DNA from: a virus
Taxonomy: Duplodnaviria > Heunggongvirae > Uroviricota > Caudoviricetes
DNA length: 32,883 bases
Strand: one strand, 5' to 3'
Virus record (IMG/VR): IMGVR_UViG_2802429220_000015
Shown here: positions 3,096-29,981 of the stretch, in pieces
Layout: each line of letters starts with the position of its first letter
How positions within the stretch are numbered: the first letter of the stretch is position 1
Position numbers and translations under genes: made by a program
The notes under the pieces: generated by a model
The model's database searches: none
The model's input: only the letters and a program-made list of their open reading frames with translations
What the model was told of the DNA's origin: nothing

Positions 3096-3113
3096 TTTAA
3101 AAGGTATTTAATT

Positions 3114-4007
3114 ATGAGTTTAATTACGCAATTAAATGACGTAATGGCCCGTCGCGGCTATACGCAGACCCACGTCGCCCGTGCTATTGGTCGTAGCAGC
3201 GCCGTTATCAGCCAGTATTTGCAGGGTAAATATCAGGGCGATATGTCTGATATTGAAGAACGCATTTCTGCCTTTGTGACCCGTGAGCGGGAAAAAGAAA
3301 ACAGCCGCCGTATTAAAGCAAAGTTTGTGACCACCGGTATGGCTGCCAAAGGACTGGAGGTGCTGGCCTACGCTCACCTGGAATGTGAAATCTGTGTGCT
3401 GTATGGCGCAGCAGGTCTTGGCAAAACAATGATTCTGCGTGAATACGCCGCCAGAAACCGGGATGCGGTCCTGATTGAAGCCGACCCGGGCTATACAGCC
3501 AGAACACTGCTTGAGGAGCTGTGCCGCCAGCTGGGGGTAAAAGTTCGCGGCAATATCCACGAACTGATTGATGCATGTGTGCGAGAACTGCGTGATTCCG
3601 GTCGTCTGCTGATGGTGGACGAGGCTGAACTGCTCCCCTATCGCGCACTGGAGGTTCTGCGCCGTCTGCATGACAAAGCGGGTATCGGGGTTGTTCTGGC
3701 GGGTATGCCTCGCCTTCTGATTAACCTCAAGGGGCGTCGTGGTGAGTTCGCCCAGTTATACAGCCGCGTGGCGCTGGCGCTTAACCTGGGCGATACGTTG
3801 TCGCAGGAAGATTTTAACCAGATAGCTACCGGGTTGATGCCGGAAGCAGCAGAGCCGGAAATCAGCGAGGCGCTTTATACACGTTCGCTGGGTAATGCCC
3901 GCCGTCTGTTCAAGCTGGCGCGTGGTGTGTACCGGATTTGTGATATCAGCGATGCGCCGGTCAGTGTGCAGGCCATTGATAAATTCGCAGAAATGTTAAT
4001 TCACTGA
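3114..4007 (+). CDS. MuB-like ATP-dependent target DNA activator (AAA+ ATPase)
   Basis: 297-aa product with N-terminal HTH-like segment and Walker A motif GAAGLGKT; immediately downstream of the transposase. Confidence 0.9.
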   Translation: MSLITQLNDVMARRGYTQTHVARAIGRSSAVISQYLQGKYQGDMSDIEERISAFVTREREKENSRRIKAKFVTTGMAAKGLEVLAYAHLECEICVLYGAAGLGKTMILREYAARNRDAVLIEADPGYTARTLLEELCRQLGVKVRGNIHELIDACVRELRDSGRLLMVDEAELLPYRALEVLRRLHDKAGIGVVLAGMPRLLINLKGRRGEFAQLYSRVALALNLGDTLSQEDFNQIATGLMPEAAEPEISEALYTRSLGNARRLFKLARGVYRICDISDAPVSVQAIDKFAEMLIH

Positions 4008-4246
4008 TGGAGAACAAGACGATGGACAAGCAGACCATTAACGCCGTCCGTTCCCGTGCCCGTGTGGCCATCCACACCACTGGTGGTCGTGTAACGGGAC
4101 AACATCACCGTTTACCTGTGGTTTATGCCTGCCCGCCCGTGGGTGGTCCTGTATGGCCGGTAACGGAAATCATCCAGACATTCAGCGGCCTGCGCCGCGT
4201 GGTTAAAACGTCCTGTATCGACGGCTGCACCGTCGTATGGCAATGA
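4007..4246 (+). CDS. Hypothetical early protein
   Basis: 79-aa ORF; start overlaps the MuB stop (TGATGG); no recognisable motif. Confidence 0.4.
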   Translation: MENKTMDKQTINAVRSRARVAIHTTGGRVTGQHHRLPVVYACPPVGGPVWPVTEIIQTFSGLRRVVKTSCIDGCTVVWQ

Positions 4247-4258
4247 GAGGAAATCAGA

Positions 4259-4474
4259 ATGGCGGTCAAGTTAGAAGTAATTATCTATACCGATGAAAAC
4301 GGTACGCTTCGTGTCAGGAGCATGGGGGCTGTTGATAAAAAAGGATTTACGGATGAAGAGGTCGGAGTAAGACAACGGTTATGGGAGGTAATGAATCAAA
4401 CTCTTAATAAAGAATTTAACGGCGTTGATTTATTTTCTGTTGGCGTGGAACCCTGCGCGCAAAACACACATTAA
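4259..4474 (+). CDS. Hypothetical early protein
   Basis: 71-aa ORF preceded by GAGAGGAAA Shine-Dalgarno-like sequence. Confidence 0.5.
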   Translation: MAVKLEVIIYTDENGTLRVRSMGAVDKKGFTDEEVGVRQRLWEVMNQTLNKEFNGVDLFSVGVEPCAQNTH

Positions 4475-4503
4475 TTTGTAAATATCACTGAGGTAATTTA
4501 ATT

Positions 4504-5148
4504 ATGACGACTGAAAATAAAGTTAAGCAATACACGAAAACTGAAGCGCCTGAAGGTTACTGGGTGGATGCCCGTGGCGTAATGACACCTGAAAGTCTTA
4601 TCAAAGATATTGACCGCGACCGTGAGCAGCTGGTCGGTGAGCTTGTGGAGATGGTGATTGCTGCCTCCGCCTCACTGCGTGAACTGAAACTGCGTGCGTT
4701 TGGTGATATTCAGGCGTTTATTGACCTGTCGGCGGAGAAATACGGCGCTGTGAAAGGCGGTAAAAAAGGGAATATCACGCTTTACAGCTTTGACGGGCGT
4801 TACAAGATTCAGCGCGCCATGCAGGACCGTATCGCGTTTGATGAACGCATTCAGACCGCGAAGTCGCTGATTGATGATTGCCTGGCTGACTGGACGGAAG
4901 GTGCACGTCCTGAAATAAAAGCCATCATCAGCGAAGCATTCAGCACGGACAAGGAAGGCAACATCAACACCGGGCGCGTTCTGGCTCTGCGTCGTCTCGA
5001 TATTACGGAGGAGCGCTGGGATAACGCCATGAAACTGATTGGTGAAGCCGTCCAGGTGGTTGGCAGCAAAAGCTATATCCGCGTGTATGAGCGCGTCGGT
5101 GATTCCGACGAATACCGCGCAATCCCGCTTGATATTGCAGGGGTTTAA
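4504..5148 (+). CDS. Conserved Mu-like early protein, possibly DUF3164 family
   Basis: 214-aa ORF with clean start; family assignment is from memory of Mu-like prophage early proteins, not from a search. Confidence 0.55.
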   Translation: MTTENKVKQYTKTEAPEGYWVDARGVMTPESLIKDIDRDREQLVGELVEMVIAASASLRELKLRAFGDIQAFIDLSAEKYGAVKGGKKGNITLYSFDGRYKIQRAMQDRIAFDERIQTAKSLIDDCLADWTEGARPEIKAIISEAFSTDKEGNINTGRVLALRRLDITEERWDNAMKLIGEAVQVVGSKSYIRVYERVGDSDEYRAIPLDIAGV

Positions 5149-5149
5149 C

Positions 5150-5383
5150 ATGCATCAGGATATCAAAGAGTACAGAGCCGGAAATAGTTGCGCGGCGTAT
5201 TCGCTGGGCGCGTCCAGAGCAGAACAACGCGGCGATTATGCCGAGGCTGAAAAGTTGTGGCGTAAGGCAGCGCAAAGCCCGTGTAGCACCCTGCGCCGCA
5301 TCTGGGCTGAACATCGTGCGGAGTTCTGCGCTAACGCTCACCTGAAGGGATGGAGGCCACGCCATGAATGCGAAGAACTTTAA
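5150..5383 (+). CDS. Hypothetical small protein (weak resemblance to PerC-like regulators)
   Basis: 77-aa product from the internal ATG of track ORF 5039..5383 (MHQDIKEYRAGNS...); segment GDYAEAEKLWRKAA loosely recalls PerC-family proteins. Confidence 0.4.
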   Translation: MHQDIKEYRAGNSCAAYSLGASRAEQRGDYAEAEKLWRKAAQSPCSTLRRIWAEHRAEFCANAHLKGWRPRHECEEL

Positions 5384-5555
5384 TAAGCAGTATCCGCCAG
5401 GGACTCGCTTCATGCACACGGCACATCCGGCGTTGCGCGGTGGCCGGGTGGTGAAAACCGTTGCACCGGCCAGAGATTTTAAATGTGGTTGTGTGGTTGA
5501 AATTAATGTCGAGCCTTATTTCGTAAAAGTCGAAACACTGAAAGCAGCGCATTAA
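5364..5555 (+). CDS. Hypothetical small protein
   Basis: 63-aa ORF overlapping the end of the previous gene. Confidence 0.4.
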   Translation: MNAKNFNKQYPPGTRFMHTAHPALRGGRVVKTVAPARDFKCGCVVEINVEPYFVKVETLKAAH

Positions 5556-5585
5556 TTTAATTCGTTTTTAATTGTTATTTAAAAC

Positions 5586-5623
5586 AGGCGTAAACCCGCC
5601 GGGGCTGGCTTACGCCTGAATCT
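5586..5623 (+). repeat. Intercistronic stem-loop element, copy 1 (GGCGTAAACCCGCCGGGGCTGGCTTACGCCTGAATCTG)
   Basis: 38-nt sequence identical to 6663..6700; stem GGCGTAA/TTACGCC, then CTGAATCTG, then RBS and the start of the 5630 gene. Confidence 0.8.
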
Positions 5624-5629
5624 GGAGAA

Positions 5630-6022
5630 ATGAAAATGAGCGTTACCGTTATCAATGAAATGCTTGGGTGTAAATTCGATAAGGTGTTTACGAATCAAAG
5701 CGCCGAACTTGTTTTTTGTGGTGAACGCCATGGGGATGGCTGGGGTGTTGTATTTACGTTTTTCCACTTTCAGGAATGTTGTGAAAACGTCTGGATTGAA
5801 GACATTGTTGGCGACCTGACAGACCTGGAAGGAGCTGTTCTCACCGAAGCGGAAGTTGTAACTGAATCCAGTGATACAGAAAACGGTAGCCAGACGTGGT
5901 CATTCTTTAAGTTCGGGACATCAAAAGGTTGTGTCGTTGTCAGATGGTGCGGTGAAAGTAATGGTTTTTATTCCGAGCGAGTTTCGCTGAAGCAGCAATT
6001 AACTGACGTTCTGGATTTTTAA
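5630..6022 (+). CDS. Hypothetical acidic, Cys/His-containing protein (accessory)
   Basis: 130-aa ORF; visibly more AT-rich than flanking genes; acidic stretch EDIVGDLTDLEGAVLTEAEVVTESSDTENG. By my base counting the ATG is at 5629 and there is a 1-nt mismatch with the track frame; track coordinates used. Confidence 0.55.
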   Translation: MKMSVTVINEMLGCKFDKVFTNQSAELVFCGERHGDGWGVVFTFFHFQECCENVWIEDIVGDLTDLEGAVLTEAEVVTESSDTENGSQTWSFFKFGTSKGCVVVRWCGESNGFYSERVSLKQQLTDVLDF

Positions 6023-6043
6023 TTCTTATTCATGACTTTTTAT

Positions 6044-6073
6044 GCCGCAGGTAAACAGGTCTGCGCCTGAATC
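6044..6073 (+). repeat. Intercistronic stem-loop element, degenerate copy (CGCAG-GTAAACAGGT-CTGCG + CCTGAATC)
   Basis: Shares GTAAAC in the loop region and CGCCTGAATC with the two 38-nt copies; followed by AAGAGGA and the ATG at 6088. Confidence 0.6.
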
Positions 6074-6087
6074 AAGAGGATTTGTAT

Positions 6088-6633
6088 ATGAAAGATAAAG
6101 TCTGGGATTTTATTGTTACTCCTGAAGGTTTTGCTACCCGTTCATCTGAGAAATTAACCAATGTAACGTTATGGGCGTCATCATTGCTGGGCCATCTGGG
6201 AGCACCTGCCGATTTTATGCATGTGGTACTTGATGCGCAGATTGCCGGAAATGCTGTGGCCAGTAAGGGGGCTTATATTCAGGGGGATTTGTTCGCCATG
6301 ATGGCGAATGACACAGCAGCGCTGTATATCGCCACACGGAACATGCTGACAAGAATATCCATGCTGTCTGACTGTAAGGATATGGAAGACCTCGCATACA
6401 TCCTTGAAGATGATTTGCTCACTATTTCAGGTGTGCAGGAATCCCTCCCGCGTCAGTTGCGGTTTATTGACCTGATGGAGTCATATAAAGATAAGCCTGA
6501 TTTTTTTCAGATTCGATTCAGTGGAATGGAACTGCTGGATGAATATTATCCGCTGGATTCGATTTCCCGTGATGTGAAGGCGTTCGTAAAGTCTGTTGAC
6601 CGCCATTACCGGAAAGCTGAACGTCGTAGTTAA
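6088..6633 (+). CDS. Hypothetical protein (accessory)
   Basis: Track ORF starts at a TTG at 6082; the ATG at 6088 has AAGAGGA 7 nt upstream. AT-rich relative to neighbours. Confidence 0.55.
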   Translation: MKDKVWDFIVTPEGFATRSSEKLTNVTLWASSLLGHLGAPADFMHVVLDAQIAGNAVASKGAYIQGDLFAMMANDTAALYIATRNMLTRISMLSDCKDMEDLAYILEDDLLTISGVQESLPRQLRFIDLMESYKDKPDFFQIRFSGMELLDEYYPLDSISRDVKAFVKSVDRHYRKAERRS

Positions 6634-6662
6634 TAAGTCTGTTTTTAATTTTGTTTGTATAT

Positions 6663-6700
6663 GGCGTAAACCCGCCGGGGCTGGCTTACGCCTGAATCTG
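6663..6700 (+). repeat. Intercistronic stem-loop element, copy 2
   Basis: Exact 38-nt repeat of 5586..5623; followed by GAGGGA and the ATG at 6712. Confidence 0.8.
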
Positions 6701-6711
6701 AGGGATTCATT

Positions 6712-7440
6712 ATGGAAAATAAAAGCAAATATATCGCCAGAATTAAAAAACTGTTACGCCTTGCCAGAGGAACATCAAGCCCGGAAGAAGCCGCTAACGC
6801 TATTGCAAAAGCCCAGGCTTATATGCGCCAGCATGGTATCAGCGAAAACGACGCGGAATTGTTCGACATTCAGGAAGCTGCCAGCGCGGGTGCGCCGAGT
6901 GATGCCAGTACACCGCCGCGTTATATGCACATCCTGTGTGACCTGGTATGTAAAGCCTTCGGTGTCGAGTGTTACATCTCCGGTGAATACCGGGCTTCTG
7001 GTTCACTCAAACGTTACGTTCGTTTTTATGGTCCTGACAGCCGCCCGGAAATTGCGGCCTACGCGTTTGATGTGCTTTCCCGTCAGATGATGGCAGAGCG
7101 TAATCAATATCAGGATAAACACTGTAAGCGTTGCAAACCATCCACGCGGGTGGCCCGTGGCGACCAGTTCTGCGAAGGCTGGGTCTTTGGTGCCCGTGAT
7201 GTCATTGCGGTGTATGACGTCTCCCCGGAAGAAAAAAGCCGCCTTGAGCTTTACAGAGAAAACCTGCACAGGACTAAAGTGCGGCGCGACGGGGATATGC
7301 GCACAGCTAAAGCGTGTCGGGGTGCAGAGTTTGCCGCTACTGCTGGTTTTATCGCCGGGAAAAATGCCAGGTTGCATCAGGGGGTTAATGGTCAGAGCAA
7401 CAGGCCGCTGGCGCTGGGAGGGGATAACGATGGCTTTTAA
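6712..7440 (+). CDS. Conserved early protein, possibly DUF2786-like
   Basis: 242-aa ORF; N-terminal segment KYIARIKKLLRLARGTSSPEEAANA recalls the DUF2786 N-terminal motif (from memory). Confidence 0.55.
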   Translation: MENKSKYIARIKKLLRLARGTSSPEEAANAIAKAQAYMRQHGISENDAELFDIQEAASAGAPSDASTPPRYMHILCDLVCKAFGVECYISGEYRASGSLKRYVRFYGPDSRPEIAAYAFDVLSRQMMAERNQYQDKHCKRCKPSTRVARGDQFCEGWVFGARDVIAVYDVSPEEKSRLELYRENLHRTKVRRDGDMRTAKACRGAEFAATAGFIAGKNARLHQGVNGQSNRPLALGGDNDGF

Positions 7441-7657
7441 ACTTCTCAGTGTCACCGAAGCAATATACCAGCCGCCCGGAGAACGCCACGAATACAGGAT
7501 GAATGACGGTAGCGCGGCGGTTGAGTTTCCCAAATATCCGGGGGCTTCCCGGTGGCGGTTCTATGACAGTGCGGGACGCCGGATTATTAAAAGAACCGTG
7601 CACAACGCCATGAAAGCCGCTGTAGAACGTCACAAAAGAAGGTTTAACTGCAAATGA
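7430..7657 (+). CDS. Hypothetical small protein
   Basis: 75-aa product from the internal ATG of track ORF 7157..7657; start overlaps the end of the previous gene. Confidence 0.45.
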   Translation: MAFKLLSVTEAIYQPPGERHEYRMNDGSAAVEFPKYPGASRWRFYDSAGRRIIKRTVHNAMKAAVERHKRRFNCK

Positions 7658-7884
7658 ATATTGAATTTTATGACTACGGAGTCACCTCAAAAATCATTGT
7701 TACCTGCTGGTTCTGGGAGTTCCGTCGCTATTGCCGGGTTGTGGATGCGGCGTTGTTTGTGGCTCCTGAAGTGCGCCACCAGAGTGGCGGTGGCCTTTTA
7801 ATGAAAACCGTCATCACCGGTAAAACGGTCCCGATGTTACGGGCGTTTAAAGTGGCAAAACAGGAGGCTTGCAATGGTCATTGA
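7654..7884 (+). CDS. Hypothetical small protein
   Basis: 76-aa ORF; ATGA start/stop overlap with the upstream gene. Confidence 0.45.
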   Translation: MNIEFYDYGVTSKIIVTCWFWEFRRYCRVVDAALFVAPEVRHQSGGGLLMKTVITGKTVPMLRAFKVAKQEACNGH

Positions 7885-8164
7885 TAAAACGATAACGATC
7901 GATGTAGCCATGAATACAGGTCTGGCGCTTATCGGTTATGGCTATATCACTTTTATGTCATTCAGGTGGTTGATTTCTTCGTTCTTTAAGCAATGTGAAA
8001 AACGTTGCCGCAAAGACAAGCGCGTGAAGGCACTAAATGCGTTTAATGACGCTTTTGATATTGACCGTATGCAACAGGGAGACCCGGCACGCGTAATTAC
8101 CCAGGGAGATGTCGTGATTTTGGTATACCGGAGTGAAAAAAATGAACAGGAGGCGGCGCAGTGA
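7874..8164 (+). CDS. Hypothetical small membrane protein
   Basis: 96-aa ORF with one hydrophobic segment (GLALIGYGYITFMSFRWLISSFF). Confidence 0.45.
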   Translation: MVIDKTITIDVAMNTGLALIGYGYITFMSFRWLISSFFKQCEKRCRKDKRVKALNAFNDAFDIDRMQQGDPARVITQGDVVILVYRSEKNEQEAAQ

Positions 8165-8723: not shown

Positions 8724-9002
8724 ATGAAGATTGAACAAATCGGAATGGCAGCCTTCCGGCAGCAGGCTGAAAGCGGTGGCGTGGATGAGTTCGTCGTGCA
8801 GAGGTTCGGTGGTGTGTATCACCTCTTCGCTGTGAATCGCCGCGCTGGTGTGTCTTATTTTCTACAGGAACGCCGTGGCGATTACAAGACGTGGCTGTCT
8901 CTTGACCGTGCCGCCGCGTTCCTGTCAGGGATTGGCGTTTCACGTTTTACCGTGCGTTTTGAGGATAACAAACATGCTGAAAAAGATGATCGGAGCCATT
9001 AA
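8724..9002 (+). CDS. Hypothetical protein
   Basis: Track ORF begins at 8688, but that ATG lies in the loop of a strong hairpin (8674..8701); the next in-frame ATG (MKIEQIG...) is used. Start is uncertain. Confidence 0.4.
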   Translation: MKIEQIGMAAFRQQAESGGVDEFVVQRFGGVYHLFAVNRRAGVSYFLQERRGDYKTWLSLDRAAAFLSGIGVSRFTVRFEDNKHAEKDDRSH

Positions 9003-9372
9003 AGCCGGTCAGGCGTATCTGGGGTGGGATGATGTCCTTTATCGCCAGACGCTGGCCCGCCTGACCGGTAAAACCAGCACCACACGCTGCAACCTCGATG
9101 AACTGCGCATCATCCGGGAATACATGCACGAACAGGGATTTCCGCGCAAAGCACCCGCCGGTAAAGGTCGCCGCCCCCGTGTTGCAATGAGCAGAAAATC
9201 AGTATTATCCAAAATTGAAGCGTTGCTGGCTGATGCCGGTCGTTCCTGGGCATATGCAGAAGGGCTGGCATCTCACATGTATAAGCAACATGTGATCGAA
9301 TGGCTGACGGATGAACAGCTTTTTGGGGTAATGGTGGCGCTGGTTAAAGATTCAAGAAGGAGAAATCAATGA
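8974..9372 (+). CDS. gemA: GemA-like (Mu gp16-like) regulatory protein
   Basis: 132-aa product from the internal ATG of track ORF 8848..9372, with GAGGA upstream; segment YLGWDDVLYRQTLARLTGKTS matches my recollection of the GemA/gp16 family; position just before mor as in Mu. Confidence 0.65.
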   Translation: MLKKMIGAIKAGQAYLGWDDVLYRQTLARLTGKTSTTRCNLDELRIIREYMHEQGFPRKAPAGKGRRPRVAMSRKSVLSKIEALLADAGRSWAYAEGLASHMYKQHVIEWLTDEQLFGVMVALVKDSRRRNQ

Positions 9373-9848
9373 TGAAAAAATGGTTGTTTTGTTTAGTAGG
9401 GGTTATTTTCTCTTGTTCTGCGTTGGCTCAGACAGAGGAACAGGCGCAAAAGGAACTGAAACGTTATCAGGATATGAAACCACAGGTTGAGCAACTTCTG
9501 AGGGAAAGCCTGAAACTCTATTATGACATGCCAGACGCTGCATCAGAATATAATAACGGTAACCCTGAAAAATGGCGTAAGGTCATAACAGGCCTGAAGG
9601 AATTCGATAAACAAATAGAGAAAATTGGCGGTAATGGCTTCGATCCTGTTTATAGTTCCTGTGTAAATATGGGGATTCAACTACAGGATTACTGGTCTAA
9701 CGTCCTCGGCAACAACAAACAGTTTCTCGAGCGTTCCAGAAGTTTGTTTATACAGGATCGCATGGATTGCTTTGATCAATTCGTCTTTGGTAAAGAACGT
9801 ATAGAGGCCAGAAAAGACCTTGCCATTGTTAATGTCTGGGATGAATAA
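9369..9848 (+). CDS. Secreted or periplasmic protein of unknown function (moron)
   Basis: 159-aa ORF with N-terminal signal peptide (MMKKWLFCLVGVIFSCSALA-QTEE); strong AGGAG RBS; markedly AT-rich compared with the rest of the window; followed by an intrinsic terminator. Confidence 0.7.
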   Translation: MMKKWLFCLVGVIFSCSALAQTEEQAQKELKRYQDMKPQVEQLLRESLKLYYDMPDAASEYNNGNPEKWRKVITGLKEFDKQIEKIGGNGFDPVYSSCVNMGIQLQDYWSNVLGNNKQFLERSRSLFIQDRMDCFDQFVFGKERIEARKDLAIVNVWDE

Positions 9849-9853
9849 ACAGG

Positions 9854-9880
9854 AACCTCCGCAAACGCGGAGGTTTTTTA
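9854..9880 (+). terminator. Rho-independent terminator
   Basis: Stem AACCTCCGC / GCGGAGGTT with AAAC loop, followed by TTTTTTA. Confidence 0.8.
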
Positions 9881-9884
9881 TGAA

Positions 9885-9915
9885 CTGTACAGGCGATCAT
9901 GTATGGCTATAATAA
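9885..9915 (+). promoter_or_regulatory. Candidate promoter for the mor-like gene
   Basis: TATAAT hexamer at about 9908..9913 with no good -35; palindrome CTGTACAG at about 9885..9892. Confidence 0.4.
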
Positions 9916-9942
9916 CAGTAAGTTACTACCGGAGACGCCATC

Positions 9943-10410
9943 ATGCAGACCTTCAGTGAAACAGATCTTCGCGATGCGCAGGTACTGCTGCCCGATTCCG
10001 TACAGCAACTGATTAGCGTGATTGGCTTCCCCGCCCTGACCCGGTTAATCCGTTCTTTTGGTGGCGTGACGTTAAGCGGTAAAACCGGCGCACACGCCGG
10101 ACGCACCGGCGGTGTCCATGCCCTGTTACATGACGTGCTGACCGAAGACGAAATCAACAAATTGATCCGCTTTCTTGGCGGTGCACCGTTTTACATTCCT
10201 CGTTGCGATCATGCGTTACGTGCCCTGCGTAACACCCGTTTTATGGCTGATTTACAGCAGCATGTAAAAGACGGATGCTCACACCGGCAGGCGCTGGCAC
10301 TACTCTGTCCCCGTTACGGGATTTCAGACCGGTACGCATGGCAACTGATACACCGACGACAAAAACAGACTTCGCTGAAAAGCCCCACCCAGGTGGGGCT
10401 TTTTGATTAA
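9943..10410 (+). CDS. mor: Mor/C-family transcription activator
   Basis: 155-aa product; segment RFLGGAPFYIPRCDHALRALRNTRFMADL aligns by eye with Mu Mor (KHLGGGQVYIPRGQALDSLIRDLRIWNDF, from memory); C-terminal HTH-like region. Confidence 0.8.
   Translation: MQTFSETDLRDAQVLLPDSVQQLISVIGFPALTRLIRSFGGVTLSGKTGAHAGRTGGVHALLHDVLTEDEINKLIRFLGGAPFYIPRCDHALRALRNTRFMADLQQHVKDGCSHRQALALLCPRYGISDRYAWQLIHRRQKQTSLKSPTQVGLFD
10379..10405 (+). terminator. Rho-independent terminator overlapping the 3' end of the mor-like gene
   Basis: Stem AGCCCCAC / GTGGGGCT with 4-nt loop, followed by TTTT. Confidence 0.7.
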
Positions 10411-10435
10411 CAGGCCTCAGAAAAAGGAGACACTT

Positions 10436-10714
10436 ATGACCAACTATACGGCACCAGGCGAGTATACGGCCTACTCAGAGCAGGCCCGGGATGCTGCCGG
10501 ACGCCGCTTCGCTCATATGAAAAATCTGGCCAGCCAGCTAAACCGAATGGCCGAACAACCGGATATGGTTGTTCAGGAAGAAGCGTTGCAGTGTGCCATT
10601 GCTGACATCATCGCCAGCGAAAACGAGATGCGCGCAGCGATGGAAAAGGCGAACGCCTCTGCTCCGCTTTGTAATAAACCTCTTATTACGCCGGATTCTC
10701 TTTCCCGCTTCTGA
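10436..10714 (+). CDS. Hypothetical protein
   Basis: 92-aa product from the internal ATG of track ORF 10403..10714, with AAGGAGA 6 nt upstream. Confidence 0.5.
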   Translation: MTNYTAPGEYTAYSEQARDAAGRRFAHMKNLASQLNRMAEQPDMVVQEEALQCAIADIIASENEMRAAMEKANASAPLCNKPLITPDSLSRF

Positions 10715-10897
10715 TTTAGCACCCCGCCGCGGCGGGGTGCTGAACTCCCCCAGCAGTACCCACCACACCAGACCGTTTACCCTCTCCACTCAGACCACAA
10801 GGCACCTTAAGGGATAGCGCCCGGCAAAAGTCATTCTGTGCCTTTGACCGGGTGTTATTTACGGGCCGTCAGTGGCTCAGATTTACAGGAGAAACTC

Positions 10898-11290
10898 ATG
10901 TCTGAACCCTTATCAGGCGGCGGAGCTGTGGCAGTCACCATCGGTGGTGCCAGTGTGTTTGGTCTTCTCACCAATACCGATTTTGGCGTCGTGGTGGGCG
11001 CGTTTGCCGGGGCGCTTTTTGTTGTCACGCAACAGAAAGAAATCCCGGTGTGGCGAATGGCCATCCACCTGCTCGTCGCGTTTGTGGTTGGCGTTCTGGG
11101 GGCTGGCGTGGCTGCGTCACTGATGCAGTGGCTGACCCACTACAACGACAAGCCGCTCGATGCATTGTGTGCGGTCGGTGTCTCGGCGTTATCCATCAAG
11201 ATACTGACCTTTCTTTATCAACAGGAAATTTCATCGCTGTTCGGCCTGTTTTCCAGACTGCGCGGCGGAGGGGGTGGAAATGGAAAGTAG
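10898..11290 (+). CDS. Multi-pass membrane protein, holin candidate
   Basis: 130-aa product from the internal ATG (MSEPLSGGG...) with AGGAG RBS; three or four hydrophobic helices; first gene of the lysis cluster. Confidence 0.5.
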   Translation: MSEPLSGGGAVAVTIGGASVFGLLTNTDFGVVVGAFAGALFVVTQQKEIPVWRMAIHLLVAFVVGVLGAGVAASLMQWLTHYNDKPLDALCAVGVSALSIKILTFLYQQEISSLFGLFSRLRGGGGGNGK

Positions 11291-11558
11291 CCTTGCCGGT
11301 ATCGTGAATGTCTGGCTGTGTCTCGCCATTGTGCTGGGGTTGTTTGTGTATCGCCGTCACGGTGCGGCGCATAAACCGATGATTACCTGGCTGGCGTACT
11401 GGCTGATGCTCGGCTACATCATCATCCCGTTCCGCTGGCTGTCAGGTACATACACACACTCCAGCTGGCTGGTTGTGGCGCTGAATCTGGTGTTCTGTGC
11501 GCTTATCGTGTGGGCGCACGGGAATTTGTCAAAAATCCTTTCGTTACTGCGGAGGTGA
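11280..11558 (+). CDS. Multi-pass membrane protein, holin or antiholin candidate
   Basis: About 92-aa product with three hydrophobic segments; track ORF starts at a GTG at 11274, but the ATG at 11280 has GGAGGGGG upstream. Confidence 0.5.
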   Translation: MESSLAGIVNVWLCLAIVLGLFVYRRHGAAHKPMITWLAYWLMLGYIIIPFRWLSGTYTHSSWLVVALNLVFCALIVWAHGNLSKILSLLRR

Positions 11559-11560
11559 AT

Positions 11561-11938
11561 ATGTCGGAAAAATTCCGTTTCAGTCAACGTAGCGAGAAAA
11601 ATCTGGCTGGCGTAAAACCACAACTGGTGGCGGTTGTACGCCGTGCGCTGGCGTTGTCGGACGTCGATTTTGGTATTACCGAAGGTTTACGCACGAAAGA
11701 ACGTCAGAAACAACTTGTCGCTGAAGGCAAGAGCCAGACCATGAACAGCCGTCACCTTACTGGCGATGCTGTTGATGTCGTGGCTTACGTTGGTGGCACC
11801 ATTTCATGGGACTGGCCGTTATACGAAAAAATCGCCCGAGCCTTTAAACAGGCTGCCGCAGAGCTGGGTGTCGCCATCGAATGGGGCGGAGACTGGAAAA
11901 CGCTGAAAGACGGGCCTCATTTCCAGTTAAAACGCTGA
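11561..11938 (+). CDS. Endolysin, M15-family zinc peptidase type
   Basis: 125-aa product from the internal ATG (MSEKFRF...) with GGAGGTG RBS; motifs SRHLTGDAVDV and DGPHFQ fit the His/Asp/His zinc site of M15 peptidases. Confidence 0.8.
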   Translation: MSEKFRFSQRSEKNLAGVKPQLVAVVRRALALSDVDFGITEGLRTKERQKQLVAEGKSQTMNSRHLTGDAVDVVAYVGGTISWDWPLYEKIARAFKQAAAELGVAIEWGGDWKTLKDGPHFQLKR

Positions 11939-11951
11939 TGCGGGAGGGATT

Positions 11952-12134
11952 ATGAACAGAAGTCACTGGCCCCACAGAACGCCACGTAAAGCCGTGCGCT
12001 GTGTTCTGGCCCTGTTTCTGGTGATGTTGCTTCCGGTGGGATGCACTGACATTAACAGAGCGGGCCAGCTGTTTGACGCGGCGGCACAGGTCTGCCGGAT
12101 TATCGACGGTATCCGGCAGTGTTCGCAGAACTGA
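11952..12134 (+). CDS. Small lipoprotein, o-spanin-like
   Basis: 60-aa ORF with signal peptide and a Cys at the end of the hydrophobic segment (LLPVGC); immediately after the endolysin; GGGAGGG RBS. Confidence 0.5.
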   Translation: MNRSHWPHRTPRKAVRCVLALFLVMLLPVGCTDINRAGQLFDAAAQVCRIIDGIRQCSQN

Positions 12135-12154
12135 TTTTTTGAAGGTCTGGCACA

Positions 12155-12361
12155 GTGAGCGTTATCAGATTTACAGAATACACAGGTTCAGGAGGTGCAG
12201 GCGCTGTCATGGTGCTCGCTGAACGCATCACCCATTTTTACCGTCAGCACGGTACACATGATGGCACTGTCATTGAACTGGATACCGGGAAAAACGTGTT
12301 CGTTCTTGAAAATCCCGACGAAGTTCAGCGCAGGATTGAACAGGCTCAGAAGGACACTTAA
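12155..12361 (+). CDS. Hypothetical small protein
   Basis: 68-aa ORF with GTG start; stop overlaps the start of the small terminase gene. Confidence 0.4.
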   Translation: MSVIRFTEYTGSGGAGAVMVLAERITHFYRQHGTHDGTVIELDTGKNVFVLENPDEVQRRIEQAQKDT

Positions 12362-12861
12362 TGGCGTGGTCACAGGATATCAGGGACAAAGTCCGTAACG
12401 GGTACATCTTTGACCAGCTTCCGCTGGATATCGTCGCCATGAAGTACGCCGTGCCGCACGATACCGCGCGGCGCTGGAAAACGCAGGCGATGAAGAACGG
12501 TGACGACTGGGACAAGCTGCGGGCCGCTCACGCGCTCGCCGGTGACGGGCTGGAAAGTGTCGCCCGCACCGTGCTTATCAGTCTGGTGGTGAAGTGTCAG
12601 ACGACGCTTGAACGGCTGAACCAGAACCCGGACATCCCGCCGCAGGAGTCCGTCGAACTGCTGGCGAGTCTGTCTGACAGTCTCAGTAAGGCGGTGGCCA
12701 GCAGTAAAAAAATCCTGCCGGAAACCGACCGGCTCGCCACGGCACTGGAAGTGGTGCAGCGGCTCGGCGCGTTCATCAAGGAGCGTCATCCGGCACAGTA
12801 TGCCCCGTTTCTTGAGGTGCTCGAAGGCTTCGCTAAAGAGCTTGAGGATAATTTCAGTTAA
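12361..12861 (+). CDS. Terminase small subunit candidate (Mu gp27-like)
   Basis: 166-aa product; N-terminal region VRNGYIFDQLPLDIVAMKYAVPHDTARRWKTQAMKNGDDWDK fits my recollection of the gp27 family; directly upstream of the large terminase. Confidence 0.7.
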   Translation: MAWSQDIRDKVRNGYIFDQLPLDIVAMKYAVPHDTARRWKTQAMKNGDDWDKLRAAHALAGDGLESVARTVLISLVVKCQTTLERLNQNPDIPPQESVELLASLSDSLSKAVASSKKILPETDRLATALEVVQRLGAFIKERHPAQYAPFLEVLEGFAKELEDNFS

Positions 12862-12895
12862 CCACAGCGGCCCGGTTTTCCGGGCCGTCTGATAT

Positions 12896-14554
12896 TTGTA
12901 TACCAGGTGTGACGTGGCAAAACGTAAACTTTCCATTAAAGAGTTTCAGAGAAGCTTACAGGAGTACATCGCCAACCTCCGCCAGACCATTGAGGCTGAA
13001 TGTCTGGGGTTCGATGTTAACCCGCAGGCCACACAGGCCCGCCGGGCGGCAGTCTGTGACCCGGTGACGGGCTACGATTATTTTGTCGAAAACTATTTCC
13101 CGCACTACGTCCGCAACCCGGCAAAAAGCGAGCTGCATAAATACCTGTTCAGCCGTCTGCCACAGGTTGTGGCAAGCCCGGACCCGGAGAACGACGCCAT
13201 CGCCGCGCCCCGTGGTGAAGCAAAATCCACGCTGGTGACGCAGCTGTTTACCCTGTGGACCATTATCCGGGCCATTAAACATTACCCGGTCATCATTATG
13301 GACAGTATCGACCAGGCTTATCCGATGCTGGAAGCCATCAAGGCTGAACTGGAATTTAACCCCCGTTTAAAAAACGATTTCCCGGAGGTGTGCGGACAGG
13401 GGCGCGTCTGGCGTATGGGGACCATCGTCACGGCCAACAATATCAAGGTGACCGTTGCCGGTAGTGGTAAAAAACTGCGTGGTCTGCGCCACGGTCCGTA
13501 CCGTCCTGACCTGGTTATCCTCGACGACATCGAGAACGACGAGATGGTGCGTAACCCGGAGCAGCGCGACAAGCTGCATGACTGGCTCACCAAAACCGTG
13601 ATGCCGCTGGGTGAGGCTGGCGGTAAAACCGATATTATTTATATCGGGACCATCCTGCATTACGACTCCGTACTGTCGCGCACACTCAATAACCCGATGT
13701 GGAAAACAGCCCGCTTTAAGGCCGTTATTCAGTGGCCTGCCAATATGAAGCTGTGGGACGAGTGGGAAGAACTCATCCGCAACAAACAGCCGGAAGCAGC
13801 GGAGGCACTTTACCGGCAGAACGAAGCCGACATGCTCGCCGGGTCGGTGGTGTCATGGGCGGCGCGTCCCCTGCTGGCGCTGATGAAAATTCGTGTCCGT
13901 GACGGCCATGACACCTTTGATTCTGAATACCAGAACGACCCGGTCAGCGGTGAAGATGCGCTGTTTGCGGGCTGCATTCACTTCTGGGTTAACCGTCTTG
14001 ATGAATGGGTGTTCTACGGTGCGGTTGACCCCAGCCTCGGGAAGAAGAATAAAAACCGCGACCCGTCGGCCATTCTCGTGGGGGGCTTTAACCGTTTTAC
14101 CGGCATTCTGGATGTGGTTGAAGCCGATATCCGCCGACGTCTGCCGAATAAACTTATCGAAGACGTGATTAAGTATCAGCGGGAATATCACTGCCTGTGC
14201 TGGTCGTTTGAGTCCGTCCAGTTTCAGGAGTTTCTGCGTACCGTGCTGGTTGAGCGTTCGGCGGCGCTGGGGGTGCAGGTTCCGGCGCTGCCGGTCATCC
14301 CGCTGGAGGATAAGGCGCTGCGTATTGAATCCCTTCAGCCGCATATGGCCAACGGTCTGATTCGTATCAGTCACACACATCAGACACTGATTGACCAGCT
14401 GCGCCACTACCCCAAAGCCGACCACGATGATGGCCCGGACTGTCTGCACATGCTGTGGACGCTGGCGGTATCGCGCAGCGCAAAATTTCAGATACACACC
14501 CCACGCAGCAGCGGGCGTGACCGTGGCGGGCGTTTTGGTTCAGGAGGATGGTAA
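12896..14554 (+). CDS. Terminase large subunit (Mu gp28-like)
   Basis: 552-aa product with Walker A-like RGEAKST; TTG start as given by the track. Confidence 0.88.
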   Translation: MYTRCDVAKRKLSIKEFQRSLQEYIANLRQTIEAECLGFDVNPQATQARRAAVCDPVTGYDYFVENYFPHYVRNPAKSELHKYLFSRLPQVVASPDPENDAIAAPRGEAKSTLVTQLFTLWTIIRAIKHYPVIIMDSIDQAYPMLEAIKAELEFNPRLKNDFPEVCGQGRVWRMGTIVTANNIKVTVAGSGKKLRGLRHGPYRPDLVILDDIENDEMVRNPEQRDKLHDWLTKTVMPLGEAGGKTDIIYIGTILHYDSVLSRTLNNPMWKTARFKAVIQWPANMKLWDEWEELIRNKQPEAAEALYRQNEADMLAGSVVSWAARPLLALMKIRVRDGHDTFDSEYQNDPVSGEDALFAGCIHFWVNRLDEWVFYGAVDPSLGKKNKNRDPSAILVGGFNRFTGILDVVEADIRRRLPNKLIEDVIKYQREYHCLCWSFESVQFQEFLRTVLVERSAALGVQVPALPVIPLEDKALRIESLQPHMANGLIRISHTHQTLIDQLRHYPKADHDDGPDCLHMLWTLAVSRSAKFQIHTPRSSGRDRGGRFGSGGW

Positions 14555-14557
14555 TTA

Positions 14558-16153
14558 ATGGCACAGCTTGTTGATATTTATGGACGCCCACTGAAACGTG
14601 AGGCACTCAAAACCACGCAGTCGGTCAGAGTGGCGGAACGGCTGCGCATTTATCCCGACCACCCGTCCCGTGGTCTGAACATCAGAAAACTGCCGCGCAT
14701 TCTGGAAGCTGCCGAACGCGGTTATCTTCCGGCGCAGGCGATGCTGTTTGCGGATATGGAAGAACGTGATGGCCATTTGTTCGCCGAGATGGAAAAGCGC
14801 AAAAAAGCGTTGCTGACGCTGGACTGGTCGGTGGAGCCGCCCCGCAATGCCTCGAAGGCAGAAAAGGCGCTGGCCGCCGCCGTGGATGAGTGGCTGCACG
14901 GTATCCCGGATATGGAGGACATCATCCTCAACGGGATGAGCAGTGTCGGTTACGGTTTCAGTTGTCAGGAAATCAGCTGGGCGTTCGTGGATAAAACGTG
15001 GTTACCGGATGCGGTGACGCTGCGACCGCATAACTGGTTTATTACCCTGCCGGAACACAATGACGAACTCCGGCTGGATGACGGCAATCGTGGGGAAGAT
15101 GGTAAAGACGGTTCCGCGCTGTGGCCGTTCGGCTGGCTGGTTCACCGTTACAACGCCCGGTCGGGGTTCCTGGGTTCATCCGGCCTGTTCCGCGTACTGG
15201 TCTGGCCGTATCTGTTCAAAAACTTCGCGCTGCGTGATATGGCGGAATTTCTGGAGATTTACGGCCTTCCGGCGCGCATTGCGTACTATGCACAGGGCAC
15301 CAGTGACGAAGACCGGGACAACATTCTCGAAGCCCTGGTTAATCTGGGCCATGAAGCGGTGGCAGCCCTGCCGCAGGGTAACGAAATCGAGTTCAAGGAA
15401 GCCGCGTCCGGTGGGCCGGAGGCGTTCATGTCGATGGTGGAATGGGCGGAGCGTACCACCTCAAAAGTGATTCTGGGCAGTACGCTGACCAGCCAGGCTG
15501 ACGGTAAAACCTCCACCAACGCGCTGGGTAATGTGCATAACGAGGTCCGGCACGACATTCTGGCCGCCGATGCGCGCCAGCTGTCCGGCATGTTCAGCAG
15601 CCTGATACAGATGATGGCCAGCCTCAACGGCTGGCAGGATATCCCGCCACGCCGTCTGCCGCGTCTGGTGTTTGATGTGCAGCAGGAAGCCGACATTAAG
15701 GGGGTGGCGGAAGCCGTCAGTGTGCTGGTCAACAATGTGGGAATGAAGGATATCCCGGTGTCGTGGGTGCGCAAAAAAACCGGTATCCCCACCCCGAAAG
15801 ACGGCGAAGAGGTACTGGTTCCGGTGGCACAGCGTCTCCCTGTGCAGGCCGGTCTCAGCCAGCTGCGTGAGCGGATGAATGTTGCCGCACTCAGTCAGCA
15901 GGACAACGGGGAGGACGACCCGGCACAGCGCGCCATCGACCGGGCAGCACTTCCGGCAGAGGCCATCGCGCAGGGAATGAACGAACTGGTGGCCCCGCTG
16001 GTGCAGGCCATACAGGAAGGCCGGAATGCAGACGAGGTCATGAACGTACTGGCGGATGCATGGACGGAGCTGCCGGATGACACACTGCGGCAGTTGCTGG
16101 CGCAGGCATTCTTTGTGGCGGATATCTGGGGGCGACTGAATGCCGACAGCTGA
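14558..16153 (+). CDS. Portal protein (Mu gp29-like)
   Basis: 531-aa product; size and position after the terminase. Confidence 0.88.
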   Translation: MAQLVDIYGRPLKREALKTTQSVRVAERLRIYPDHPSRGLNIRKLPRILEAAERGYLPAQAMLFADMEERDGHLFAEMEKRKKALLTLDWSVEPPRNASKAEKALAAAVDEWLHGIPDMEDIILNGMSSVGYGFSCQEISWAFVDKTWLPDAVTLRPHNWFITLPEHNDELRLDDGNRGEDGKDGSALWPFGWLVHRYNARSGFLGSSGLFRVLVWPYLFKNFALRDMAEFLEIYGLPARIAYYAQGTSDEDRDNILEALVNLGHEAVAALPQGNEIEFKEAASGGPEAFMSMVEWAERTTSKVILGSTLTSQADGKTSTNALGNVHNEVRHDILAADARQLSGMFSSLIQMMASLNGWQDIPPRRLPRLVFDVQQEADIKGVAEAVSVLVNNVGMKDIPVSWVRKKTGIPTPKDGEEVLVPVAQRLPVQAGLSQLRERMNVAALSQQDNGEDDPAQRAIDRAALPAEAIAQGMNELVAPLVQAIQEGRNADEVMNVLADAWTELPDDTLRQLLAQAFFVADIWGRLNADS

Positions 16154-17306
16154 CGATGTTGACCTGGGGTATGCGTACACACTGAAACCGGAAGAAGCGA
16201 TTAAGTATTTCGAAAGTAAGGGATACGTTATCGGCTTCCGCTGGCACGATGTGAAGGATATCGCCAACGCCCGGGCGTTCACGGTGGCTGGCGTGCTGAA
16301 ACTGGATGTGCTGAAGGATATCCGTGATGGCCTGACGGCCGCACTGGCTGACGGCGGGACGTTCCGGGAGTTTGCTGCACAACTGGAGCCACTGCTGGAG
16401 AAAAAAGGCTGGCTGGGTAAAAAACTGATTGTGGACGAGGACACCGGCGAACTGCACGGCAGACAGCTGACGCCGCGCCGGTTGCGCACGATATTTGATA
16501 CCAACATTCAGTCGTCCTACAACGCCGGACGTTATCAGCAACAGATGGCGAACGTGGCCGACCGGCCTTATTTTGAGCGCGTGGCGGTGATGGACCTTCA
16601 CACACGCCCGAAACACGCCGCCCTGAACGGCTTTACCGCCCGGGCGGATGACCCGGTCTGGGAGTATTTCTACGCCCCTGACGGGTACGGATGCCGCTGC
16701 CGTATCCGGGCGCGTTCGGCGTCTGATGTGGAGAAATATGGCCTGACGGTGCAGAGCAGCGAGGGGCGACTGGTTGAGGTTGAGCAGGAATATGGCCAGC
16801 CGGGCCTGACCATCAGAACAATGGGACTGAAGATGCCGGACGGCTCCGTGTATACCGCCGACCCGGGCTTCGGATTTAATCCCGGTCGGGTGGCATGGCA
16901 GCCGGAACTGGAGAAATATGATTACCGCAGTGCCCGCCAGTATGTCACCGGCACTCTGACCGGGCCGGATTTTGCCCGGGGACTGGCGAACGTCAGCGAA
17001 CTGGATGCGCGCCAGCGATATCCGCTGGCCATCCGTTCACCGGAACAGGTCGCCGCCACGGGCGCTGCACGGCAGACGGTAAACCTTACGGCTGACGTTA
17101 TGAAGCGCCTCAGTGCAACAGACACGCCCCCGGCCGCCGCCGACTATGTGCTGATGCAGCAGACCATCGAACGGGCGGAGCATGTCACGCAGGACGGCAA
17201 CGCGTGGCGGTATGCGTTACAGTCGGGCGACCGCTGGTCAGTGGCGACGGTTGAGGATGACGTGCTGACAGACTGGGTTATGCAGGATACCCCGGAGGCA
17301 TCATGA
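16140..17306 (+). CDS. Mu F-like head morphogenesis protein (gp30-like)
   Basis: 388-aa product; overlaps the portal stop; position and size as in Mu. Confidence 0.82.
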   Translation: MPTADDVDLGYAYTLKPEEAIKYFESKGYVIGFRWHDVKDIANARAFTVAGVLKLDVLKDIRDGLTAALADGGTFREFAAQLEPLLEKKGWLGKKLIVDEDTGELHGRQLTPRRLRTIFDTNIQSSYNAGRYQQQMANVADRPYFERVAVMDLHTRPKHAALNGFTARADDPVWEYFYAPDGYGCRCRIRARSASDVEKYGLTVQSSEGRLVEVEQEYGQPGLTIRTMGLKMPDGSVYTADPGFGFNPGRVAWQPELEKYDYRSARQYVTGTLTGPDFARGLANVSELDARQRYPLAIRSPEQVAATGAARQTVNLTADVMKRLSATDTPPAAADYVLMQQTIERAEHVTQDGNAWRYALQSGDRWSVATVEDDVLTDWVMQDTPEAS

Positions 17307-17854
17307 GCAACGGTAAACTGGATATTAAGATTGATTTAAGCGCGTATAACACCACGCTGGGGAAACTGATTCGTTCCGTGAAGGACCGGCGCGATCTGAT
17401 GACGGCACTTGCGGGTTCCATGCTGGATGCGGTTGAGACTAACTTTGAACAACAGGGGCGCCCGAAATGGATGGGCTGGAGTCCGGCTTATGCGAAACGG
17501 CGCGGCCCCGGGCAAATCCTTCAGAAATCCGGGCGACTGGCTGCCAGTATCCGCTCTGCGGTTAACAATAACGAGGCCACGGTCGGGACAAACGTCCGTT
17601 ATGCCCGTATCCACAACGAAGGCGGCGAAATCCGCCATCAGGCACGGACGCAGAACCTGTATTTTAAACAGTACAAAAACGGCAGCGTCAGCACCCGCTT
17701 TGTGAAAAAGCGCAACAGTAATTTTGTGCAGAGCGCAACGGTCGGAGCGTATACGGTCAACATGCCCGCGCGCCCCTTCCTTCAGCTTGTACAGGACGAC
17801 ATCGACGAGCTGGAGAACACCGCAAACCGCTATTTTGCGCGTGTGATTGACTGA
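17303..17854 (+). CDS. Mu G-like virion morphogenesis protein (gp31-like)
   Basis: 183-aa product; ATGA overlap with the F gene. Confidence 0.78.
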   Translation: MSNGKLDIKIDLSAYNTTLGKLIRSVKDRRDLMTALAGSMLDAVETNFEQQGRPKWMGWSPAYAKRRGPGQILQKSGRLAASIRSAVNNNEATVGTNVRYARIHNEGGEIRHQARTQNLYFKQYKNGSVSTRFVKKRNSNFVQSATVGAYTVNMPARPFLQLVQDDIDELENTANRYFARVID

Positions 17855-18054
17855 ATGACCACAAACGCGCTGTAATCGTCTGTGGCAACATAAACGCCTC
17901 ACGGATGAGGCATTACAGCACCGCACCCCGTAAATGCTGTCAGAATCGTTTTTAAAAGGGTTTTAAAAACGGTTTTATTTCCCCTTTTATCCTTTCGCGT
18001 TATGGCTGGGTGCTGAACACCCTCCACAGTACCCCGTGTTCCCCTTCCGTCATC
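17855..18054. promoter_or_regulatory. G-I intergenic control region: phased A/T tracts plus candidate late promoter; possible strong gyrase site
   Basis: 200-bp noncoding gap. T/A tracts with about 12-bp period at 17949..17990; small hairpin GCCTCA-CGGA-TGAGGC at 17896..17911; motif GTGCTGAACACCCTC at 18010..18024. In Mu the strong gyrase site and the I-gene late promoter map to the G-I interval (established knowledge; inference for this sequence). Confidence 0.5.
18010..18024 (+). promoter_or_regulatory. Repeated 15-bp motif GTGCTGAACACCCTC, copy upstream of the protease/scaffold gene
   Basis: Exact 15-mer also present at 29930..29944; ends about 30 bp before the candidate start of gene I. 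Confidence 0.5.
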
Positions 18055-29944: not shown

Positions 29945-29981
29945 CCTGATTCTGACCTGTCCATGCTGCCAGACTGGCGGC

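Follow-up and report, generated by a model that had tools for sequence, protein, structure and literature searches.

In phage Mu, a cascade of two paralogous activators, Mor and then C, leads to the late genes, with the promoter of C depending on Mor. The window analysed here (the whole stretch of 32,883 nucleotides, or 32.9 kb) is a Mu-like (transposable) prophage of E. coli, in which the initial annotation saw a single Mor/C-family gene and suggested that one activator might serve both middle and late genes, possibly regulating itself at a perfect 8-bp palindrome ahead of its gene. The locus raises the question of whether this prophage dispenses with the cascade and, if so, which promoters its activator serves and how the activator gene is itself transcribed. 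The genes of the + strand run in the order ner, transposase A, B, small early genes, gemA, the mor locus and the lysis genes, followed by DUF1804/terminase, portal, head, tail and baseplate genes. The early control region and the transposition genes are placed as follows:

Left of ner, - strand: c repressor.
649-816: c/ner control region, which carries the repeats CTTTCTTT and TTATCCG..CGGATAA.
1053-3095, + strand: transposase A.
3114-4007, + strand: B gene.

Prophages of E. coli 08-00022, RM9088 and others carry the segment 8800-11300 with 100% identity; at reduced identity, which mostly exceeds 90%, it is matched by 61 of the 5,426 complete E. coli genomes. A search with 9700-10500 also matched EPEC E2348/69, and carriers of the prophage include this strain and several STEC. 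In a megablast DNA search of a phage collection no sequenced phage isolate matched, and the prophage is known from bacterial genomes and IMG/VR only. In strain RM9088, the only gene in the right end of the prophage past the window is one for tail-fibre assembly. The activator locus comprises the following features:

8848-9372, + strand: gemA homologue (Pfam PF06252 GemA, E 7.6e-18), the last conserved gene of the early operon.
9369-9848, + strand: 159-aa cargo ORF with an N-terminal signal peptide, in a variable slot.
9851-9879, + strand: intrinsic terminator T1 (dG -18.4 kcal/mol, z -6.1), at the end of the early operon.
9885-9892: palindrome CTGTACAG, bases 2-7 of which form a -35-like hexamer.
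9886-9913, + strand: predicted sigma-70 promoter P_mor (TGTACA, 16 nt, TATAAT).
9895-9898: GATC (Dam site) in the P_mor spacer, at about -25 to -22.
9943-10410, + strand: Mor/C-family activator gene, 155 aa (PF08765, phrog_836).
10377-10404, + strand: intrinsic terminator T2 (dG -20.6, z -4.3).
10436-10714, + strand: 92-aa ORF of unknown function (phrog_7152, E 4.6e-42).
10716-10743, + strand: G+C-rich hairpin without a U-run (dG -24.5, z -5.8), which abuts and overlaps the first late-promoter box.

The product of ORF 9943-10410 belongs to the Mor/C family, matching Pfam PF08765 (Mor) over residues 62-143 (E 1.9e-6, 28.3 bits with a cut-off of 24.9) and phrog_836, 'late transcriptional activator', over its full length (residues 6-154, E 4.4e-42). 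Reciprocally, a profile of Mu Mor and C recovers this ORF at E 2.9e-5. There is only one copy of the gene. When all 150 stop-to-stop ORFs with a length of 80 aa or more were scanned against Pfam, just one matched Mor at E <= 0.1, and subfamily profile HMMs, built with or without Mu Mor and C and run with filters off, gave one match among all six-frame ORFs of at least 30 aa in the window. As a control for sensitivity, a profile that contained no Mu sequence still detected Mu C (2e-6) and Mor (3e-3). The same type of profile search found no second Mor/C homologue in the right end of the prophage beyond the window in RM9088, so that the Pfam scan and the profile HMMs bear out the single gene of the initial annotation across the whole prophage. 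The cargo ORF at 9369-9848, which sits at the position of mor in Mu, was considered as a cryptic Mor and rejected because it carries a signal peptide, matches neither Pfam nor PHROG entries and shows no similarity to Mor/C.

The family hallmark, a glycine-containing beta-strand linker GGxx(F/Y)IP between the dimerisation and HTH domains, is found at residues 78-87 of the activator, where LGGAPFYIPR aligns with LGGGQVYIPR of Mor and LGGRQFYIPC of C, and G79, Y84, I85 and P86 are invariant across the subfamily. In the AF2 model the linker contains a strand at 83-85, and helices are predicted at 89-109, 114-125 and 129-145 (pLDDT >90), which are candidates for the C-terminal helix-turn-helix DNA-binding domain of the family; at the sequence level, the activator aligns with residues 58-134 of Mu C. 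A Foldseek search of the PDB with the AF2 monomer gave no significant match (the top entry, an estrogen receptor at E>1, is noise), perhaps because Mor/C proteins are intertwined oligomers and the query was a monomer, which may therefore match nothing. When the subfamily profile was compared with the PDB, it came nearer to Mu C (9l0x, E 9e-4) than to Mor (1rr7, E 0.78). The activator ends in QVGLF-D, with Q150, L153 and F154 at least 90% conserved, and QVGLF compares with QPDLF of MuC and with the clamp-binding consensus QL[SD]LF. Late transcription by Mu C needs its C-terminal clamp-binding motif QPDLF (PMC12867686), and the resemblance suggests that the activator of this prophage may likewise depend on the clamp. 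Together, the profile comparison and the QVGLF terminus indicate that the activator is most likely C-like rather than Mor-like. Mu C (gp21; PDB 9l0x, 9vw8) is a member of the same Pfam family and the best PDB match of the subfamily profile, and it shares the C-terminal Qxx-LF motif. However, its identity to the activator is only ~20%, and the activator, unlike Mu C, has an extra N-terminal helix-GG-strand module (aa 18-44) and no N-terminal clamp-binding motif.

The gene does lie between two intrinsic terminators, both of them G+C-rich hairpins with U-runs, although T2 falls within the last codons of the ORF and not after it. The stem of T1 is formed by 9851-9862 and 9867-9878, with a core of CCUCCGC/GCGGAGG followed by U6, and the U-run at 9874-9879 makes up most of the 3' arm; T1 ends 2 nt left of the start coordinate of the initial annotation. 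In T2, the stem is formed by 10377-10388 and 10393-10404 with a U-run at 10400-10404, and the 3' arm and U-run encode the QVGLF motif. The T2 stem is retained in Edwardsiella through a compensatory A>G / T>C change, and every relative with P_mor has a hairpin and T-run at the position of T1, with stem sequences that vary. A consensus terminator scan missed both T1 and T2 on the + strand, which we read as a consequence of stem extension having consumed the U-run; from their sequences both hairpins are predicted to act as terminators. A permissive-threshold Rfam search of 9300-11000 identified no known RNA element, returning only sub-threshold matches that ride on the terminator hairpins. Upstream of T1, the start of the cargo ORF overlaps the gemA stop (ATGA), and the slot it occupies holds different signal-peptide ORFs, or is empty, in other prophages. 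PGAP names the gemA homologue 'gp16 family protein' and gives it a later start, at window position 8974. Downstream, the 92-aa ORF lies between T2 and the first late promoter with no space for a promoter of its own, and it is kept after mor in the Salmonella-type locus L043, in L047 and in Edwardsiella.

Between T1 and the gene lies P_mor, with a predicted +1 near 9920, ~23 nt before the ATG, and a Shine-Dalgarno sequence GGAG at 9931-9934. Its TATAAT, reported in the initial annotation, is present at 9908-9913 and is one of only two such hexamers in the window. The accompanying statement that the promoter has no -35 goes too far: at 9886-9891, with a 16-nt spacer, stands TGTACA, which agrees with TTGACA at 4/6, even though it lacks the TTG part of the consensus, and P_mor is the best of only two 10/12 promoter sites in the whole window. 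The sequence CTGTACA-N3-GATCA-N4-TG-N2-TATAAT is invariant across six variants, which are not independent of each other and whose Mor proteins are 53-100% identical. The hexamers and a 23-nt register are kept where the flanks have diverged to ~50%, in E. coli, Salmonella-type and Edwardsiella relatives with 53-92% identical Mor. Among 17 IMG/VR contigs an identical P_mor stands behind several different upstream genes and terminators, and where upstream genes differ between prophages, their homology sets in immediately to the left of CTGTACAG. P_mor therefore belongs to the mor module. Its activity is a prediction from sequence, according to which P_mor looks sigma-70-sufficient rather than activator-dependent.

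The perfect 8-bp palindrome CTGTACAG is also where it was described, at 9885-9892. By itself it is not beyond chance, as the window holds 89 perfect 8-bp palindromes, or ~1 per 370 bp. Its first seven bases, CTGTACA, are invariant in relatives, but the eighth is C in the Salmonella-type loci L043 and L067 (CTGTACAC), where the 8-bp symmetry is lost and TGTACA is kept, so that the conserved element is the -35-like hexamer and not the palindrome. Judged from these alignments, CTGTACAG is essentially the -35-like hexamer with one flanking base on each side, and it would mostly reflect this hexamer at a mosaic junction rather than a site of self-regulation. A second palindrome, AGTAAGTTACT, at the predicted +1 (9917-9927) was considered as an operator and rejected, as it is not conserved in the Salmonella-type and Edwardsiella promoters.

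Elsewhere in the window, the box CTGAACNCCNNC has exactly three occurrences (10740, 18013 and 29932), where 0.27 would be expected. Each copy is on the + strand and occupies a short intergenic gap at the head of an operon, before the holin/lysis genes, protease I and gp46, respectively, and a -10 hexamer with A2 and T6 is found exactly 38 nt past the start of the box in 3/3. We consider these sites to be predicted late promoters:

10740-10783, + strand: Plys-like late promoter for lysis and packaging, with box CTGAACTCCCCC at 10740-10751 and -10 TACCCT at 10778-10783.
18013-18056, + strand: PI-like late promoter for protease I and the head genes, with box CTGAACACCCTC and -10 CATCAT at 18051-18056.
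29932-29975, + strand: late promoter before gp46 for the baseplate and fibre genes, with box CTGAACACCCTC and -10 CAGACT at 29970-29975.

In each of these -35-less predicted promoters the -10 hexamer is weak (TACCCT, CATCAT and CAGACT) and the late box CTGAACnCCnnC spans about -50 to -39, the zone in which Mor and C bind in Mu (PMC2582627). The box has no obvious dyad; Mor and C sites are described as imperfect dyads. By analogy with Mu, the activator would bind all three boxes. The longer sequence CTGAAC-N8-CAGTAC occurs exactly twice in the window (10740 and 18013), and its second half, CAGTAC, was rejected as a general part of the box, being missing at 29932 and from most relatives (L047 keeps it). 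The box and the register recur in at least seven related prophages. A Plys-like box with the 38-nt register follows mor in L043, L047 and the Xenorhabdus, Photorhabdus, Morganella and Intestinirhabdus loci; the -10 after the box is TACACT in L043 and TATTCT in L047. In Xenorhabdus, Photorhabdus and Morganella, CTGAACCCC(n)TCAA precedes TACACT or TATACT, and in Intestinirhabdus it precedes CACAAT. Boxes also stand at three equivalent genome positions in Klebsiella phage ST405-OXA48phi1.1 (CCCACTGAAGCCCnTCAA) and in SuMu (TGTGGAAGTnnTTCC). Because boxes share these three positions across the Klebsiella phage and SuMu, the single protein most likely acts as a late activator, like Mu C, with no separate middle class of promoters. 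The mom/com operon is absent from the window and from the short right-end stretch examined in RM9088, and therefore, unlike in Mu, no fourth late promoter is expected.

Having one activator does not set this phage apart. In the literature, no passage was found that says outright that Mu-like phages mostly carry one Mor/C gene, and for this reason the same profile was run on four phages: it gave one match each in SuMu, Klebsiella phage ST405-OXA48phi1.1 and Pseudomonas MP22, and two in Mu. Published work is in keeping with these counts, as 'the late regulator Mor/C' has been treated as one core protein of reference transposable phages (PMC8705779) and KS10 lists a single Mor after gp16 (PMC2628397). 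By the profile matches, a single activator is ordinary for this group of Mu-like phages, and this type of protein is already called 'late transcriptional activator' by RefSeq and PHROGs. The closest phage homologues of the activator are SuMu gp16, MP22 orf19 (D3112-like) and the protein of the Klebsiella phage, which match over the full length at 31-41% identity. In all three phages the phrog_836 gene is present in single copy between gemA and the lysis genes. However, in MP22 and the Klebsiella phage it adjoins or overlaps gemA and lacks both a terminator and a promoter of its own, and the boxes of the Klebsiella phage and SuMu differ in sequence from CTGAACnCCnnC.

Comparison with Mu itself shows a layout shared with Mu C (terminator, promoter, activator gene, terminator, late promoter and lysis genes) and, as for Mu C, several predicted -35-less targets, two of them at the equivalents of Plys (lysis genes) and PI (protease I). 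The third predicted promoter here, before gp46, is in the role of Mu PP, which lies further upstream, inside gene N. The box CTGAACnCCnnC differs from the TTAT-N5-6-ATAA recognised by Mu C, and the activator gene has a sigma-70-like promoter, whereas the promoter of Mu C is Mor-dependent. With Mu Mor the activator shares the protein family and the position of its gene after gemA. The Mu Pm region also has a terminator hairpin and T-run immediately upstream of a promoter that drives a C-type gene, but there Mor binds the terminator stem itself (GCCGG/CCGGC, 9179-9193), whose centre is near -43.5 of Pm. The T1 stem, in contrast, is centred near -55 and, unlike the Pm dyad, differs in sequence between variants, and is thus not a specific binding site. 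P_mor does not have the form of a Mu-type middle promoter, which lacks a -35 and has a dyad at -43.5, and Mu has two paralogous activators where this prophage has no second one.

A comparison of 60-odd related loci places this arrangement among three wirings of mor. In at least 16 loci (type A), mor adjoins gemA and has no promoter. In type B, gemA, with or without a cargo gene, is followed by a terminator, the conserved P_mor sequence, mor and T2; its members are this prophage, ~20 near-identical IMG/VR contigs, a 92% relative, an 83% relative, and Salmonella-type (65%) and Edwardsiella (53%) loci. In type C (Xenorhabdus, Photorhabdus, Morganella and others), a cargo gene is followed by a late-type box with AATACT in the 38-nt register and then mor, with the predicted start inside the terminator stem. 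The type C relatives probably activate their own mor, and the sequences suggest that they do so through this late-type box and not through a palindrome.

The reading that we prefer, to which we assign a probability of about 0.6, is that the gene is the only Mor/C-family activator of the prophage, functionally late (C-like), with its own sigma-70-type promoter and three late promoters as its targets. Early transcription of the operon from ner, A and B through gemA and the cargo gene would end at T1, and the activator gene would then be transcribed from P_mor. Most mor transcripts would end at T2, and read-through would express the 92-aa ORF. The activator would bind the CTGAACnCCnnC box at each of the three late promoters and recruit RNA polymerase, as Mu C does. 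Of the scheme put forward in the initial annotation, a single activator without a Mor-to-C cascade is thus supported, by one gene and three predicted promoters that share a box.

This reading leaves silence in the lysogen to be accounted for. For a lysogen, a promoter whose -10 is perfect should pose a danger when it stands before the sole late activator, and P_mor looks fairly strong on paper, with its perfect -10 and 4/6 -35-like hexamer. MuC activates late promoters when uninduced and is toxic when overproduced (PMC12867686), and by analogy a constitutive activator should switch on the lysis genes here. P_mor has no operator-like similarity to the c/ner region (649-816), as CTTTCTTT and TTATCCG..CGGATAA are absent from it. 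Control in the lysogen might come from an early or host factor, or from a reliance of activator function on clamp loading.

One proposal for this control is an addition to the preferred reading, not an alternative to it, and we regard it as unlikely: P_mor would sense Dam methylation, and with it replication, through the GATC in its spacer, replacing the Mor-to-Pm step of Mu. The promoter would be low in the fully methylated prophage and fire on the hemi- or unmethylated copies produced by replicative transposition. The Mu mom promoter is Dam-controlled, and classic Dam-sensitive promoters (IS10 pIN) have GATC in a hexamer, unlike P_mor, where the site lies in the spacer. Middle transcription in Mu requires DNA replication (PMC2582627), and GATCA does not change among the six promoter variants, in contrast to the spacer bases next to it, but these variants are not independent. 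GATC is 4.5-fold depleted in the window (29 sites against ~130 expected), which makes the retained P_mor site stand out; locally, however, the depletion is weak, with 9 of the 29 sites clustered in 8988-10207. The broader idea that the phrog_836 late activator is wired in three interchangeable ways, co-transcribed with gemA in the early operon in type A, self-activated behind a terminator in type C, and with the type B promoter as a Dam/replication sensor in place of Mor acting on Pm, is just as speculative.

Alternatively, a non-homologous early phage protein (a functional Mor analogue) or a host factor could control P_mor through CTGTACA...GATCA, so that a two-step cascade would persist with an unrelated first regulator. 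Such a factor would explain why 15 bases around -35 are conserved without the critical TTG, and P_mor must somehow be off in lysogens; the early region codes for several small uncharacterised proteins and an ANR-family regulator that might supply it. No candidate has been identified, though, the motif is not repeated elsewhere in the window, and promoter function alone also accounts for the conserved bases of P_mor, and we judge this explanation to be rather improbable.

It is very unlikely that P_mor is incidental and that the activator arises from early-promoter transcripts (Pe, between c and ner) that partly pass through T1, in the way mor is expressed in Mu and in the relatives whose mor adjoins gemA. 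Terminators are seldom 100% efficient and the type A loci have mor directly after gemA without a promoter, but all variants have a strong T1 hairpin with U6, and the P_mor hexamers and register stay invariant between diverged flanks.

The weakest proposal, autoregulation by binding of the activator to CTGTACAG, can draw on the overlap of the palindrome with the -35 region, the zone bound by Mor/C proteins in Mu (PMC2582627), and on the activator-type box upstream of mor in type C relatives, which indicates that self-activation exists in the subfamily, but it is unsupported and highly improbable here, since the palindrome bears no resemblance to the box of the three predicted late promoters, the T1 3' arm and T-run rather than a late-type box occupy -50 to -39 of P_mor, perfect 8-bp palindromes are common in the window, and the symmetry is gone in the Salmonella-type loci.

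Taken alone, the activator locus has little significance. Read as we prefer, it indicates that a widespread E. coli prophage uses the one-activator scheme of SuMu/D3112-type transposable phages and not the two-step cascade of Mu. Useful by-products are three predicted late promoters, defined by their box and register and open to testing, together with a promoter for the activator gene that is conserved and looks independent of an activator. The three wirings of one activator are a neat case of regulatory rewiring by module exchange, and if the type B promoter does sense methylation, it would couple late transcription to replicative transposition without any protein.

The single Mor/C-family activator gene, mor (9943-10410), lies between two predicted intrinsic terminators, T1 (9851-9879) upstream and T2 (10377-10404) within its last codons, and the features on either side of it are as follows.

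9369-9848: slot between gemA and T1 (equivalents in the related loci L028, L029, L042, L043, L047 and L064)
10436-10714: conserved 92-aa ORF, phrog_7152
10716-10743: strong hairpin lacking a U-run, 3' of the 92-aa ORF and overlapping a predicted late box

The cargo ORFs in the gemA-T1 slot vary among prophages (159, 158, 112, 167, 174 and 175 aa), with an N-terminal signal peptide in every one of those compared. The slot is free of cargo in L026 and Edwardsiella, where the order is gemA, terminator and P_mor, the predicted sigma-70 promoter of mor. Proteins of the mor subfamily repeat internally a module of a helix, GG and a short strand, seen in the mor protein at aa 18-44 (LTRLIRSFGGVTLS) and aa 68-86 (INKLIRFLGGAPFYIP); an AF2 pLDDT of 81 was noted with this module, and the Pfam Mor model spans only aa 62-143. 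The codons for the C-terminal QVGLF (within 10393-10410), which resembles a clamp-binding motif, form the 3' arm and U-run of T2. In Edwardsiella, the T2 stem is retained through paired changes, and two residues are altered (T to A and V to A). The 92-aa ORF begins 32 nt past the end of T2 with a strong Shine-Dalgarno sequence. There is no room for a promoter between the two, and as judged from this layout, its expression requires transcripts that run through T2.

GATC is depleted 4.5-fold in the window, with 29 sites counted against about 130 expected, whereas the depletion in Mu is just about 2-fold. No GATC occurs within 1134-7896 or 10208-17392, and nine of the 29 sites are clustered in the 1.2 kb at 8988-10207 that reaches from gemA through the cargo gene and P_mor into mor. 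The early part of the prophage contains three further features.

649-816 (within): c/ner control region, repeat set 1, CTTTCTTT(TC)/GAAAAGAAAG
649-816 (within): c/ner control region, repeat set 2, two copies of TATCCG-N4-GGATAAC
5150-5383: ORF for an ANR-family (AraC negative regulator) protein, from the PGAP annotation of the identical prophage of E. coli 08-00022

The two repeat sets probably serve as operators for the repressor and Ner. In strain 08-00022 (L002), the same prophage sits within a lambdoid prophage. Relative to the window (at 12861-12896 and about 26700), it has an additional gene, for a DNA methyltransferase, lying between the DUF1804 gene and terL, and its tape-measure gene is interrupted by ISCro1; RM9088 shares this IS.

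At the predicted promoters of protease I (18051-18066) and gp46 (29970-29984), the -10 hexamer ends 8 and 7 nt, respectively, ahead of the ATG that is annotated as the start, and a Shine-Dalgarno sequence is lacking; therefore both mRNAs may be leaderless. The same geometry is found in Klebsiella phage ST405-OXA48phi1.1. In Xenorhabdus, Photorhabdus and Morganella relatives, a box of the late-promoter type, CCACTGAACCCCTTCAAC, is found with AATACT upstream of mor itself (L009, L011, L014, L016 and L069-L086), and the predicted start lies within the 5' arm of a terminator hairpin. This arrangement makes the mor promoter of these relatives look self-activated, and its transcripts appear to evade the terminator that halts early transcription.
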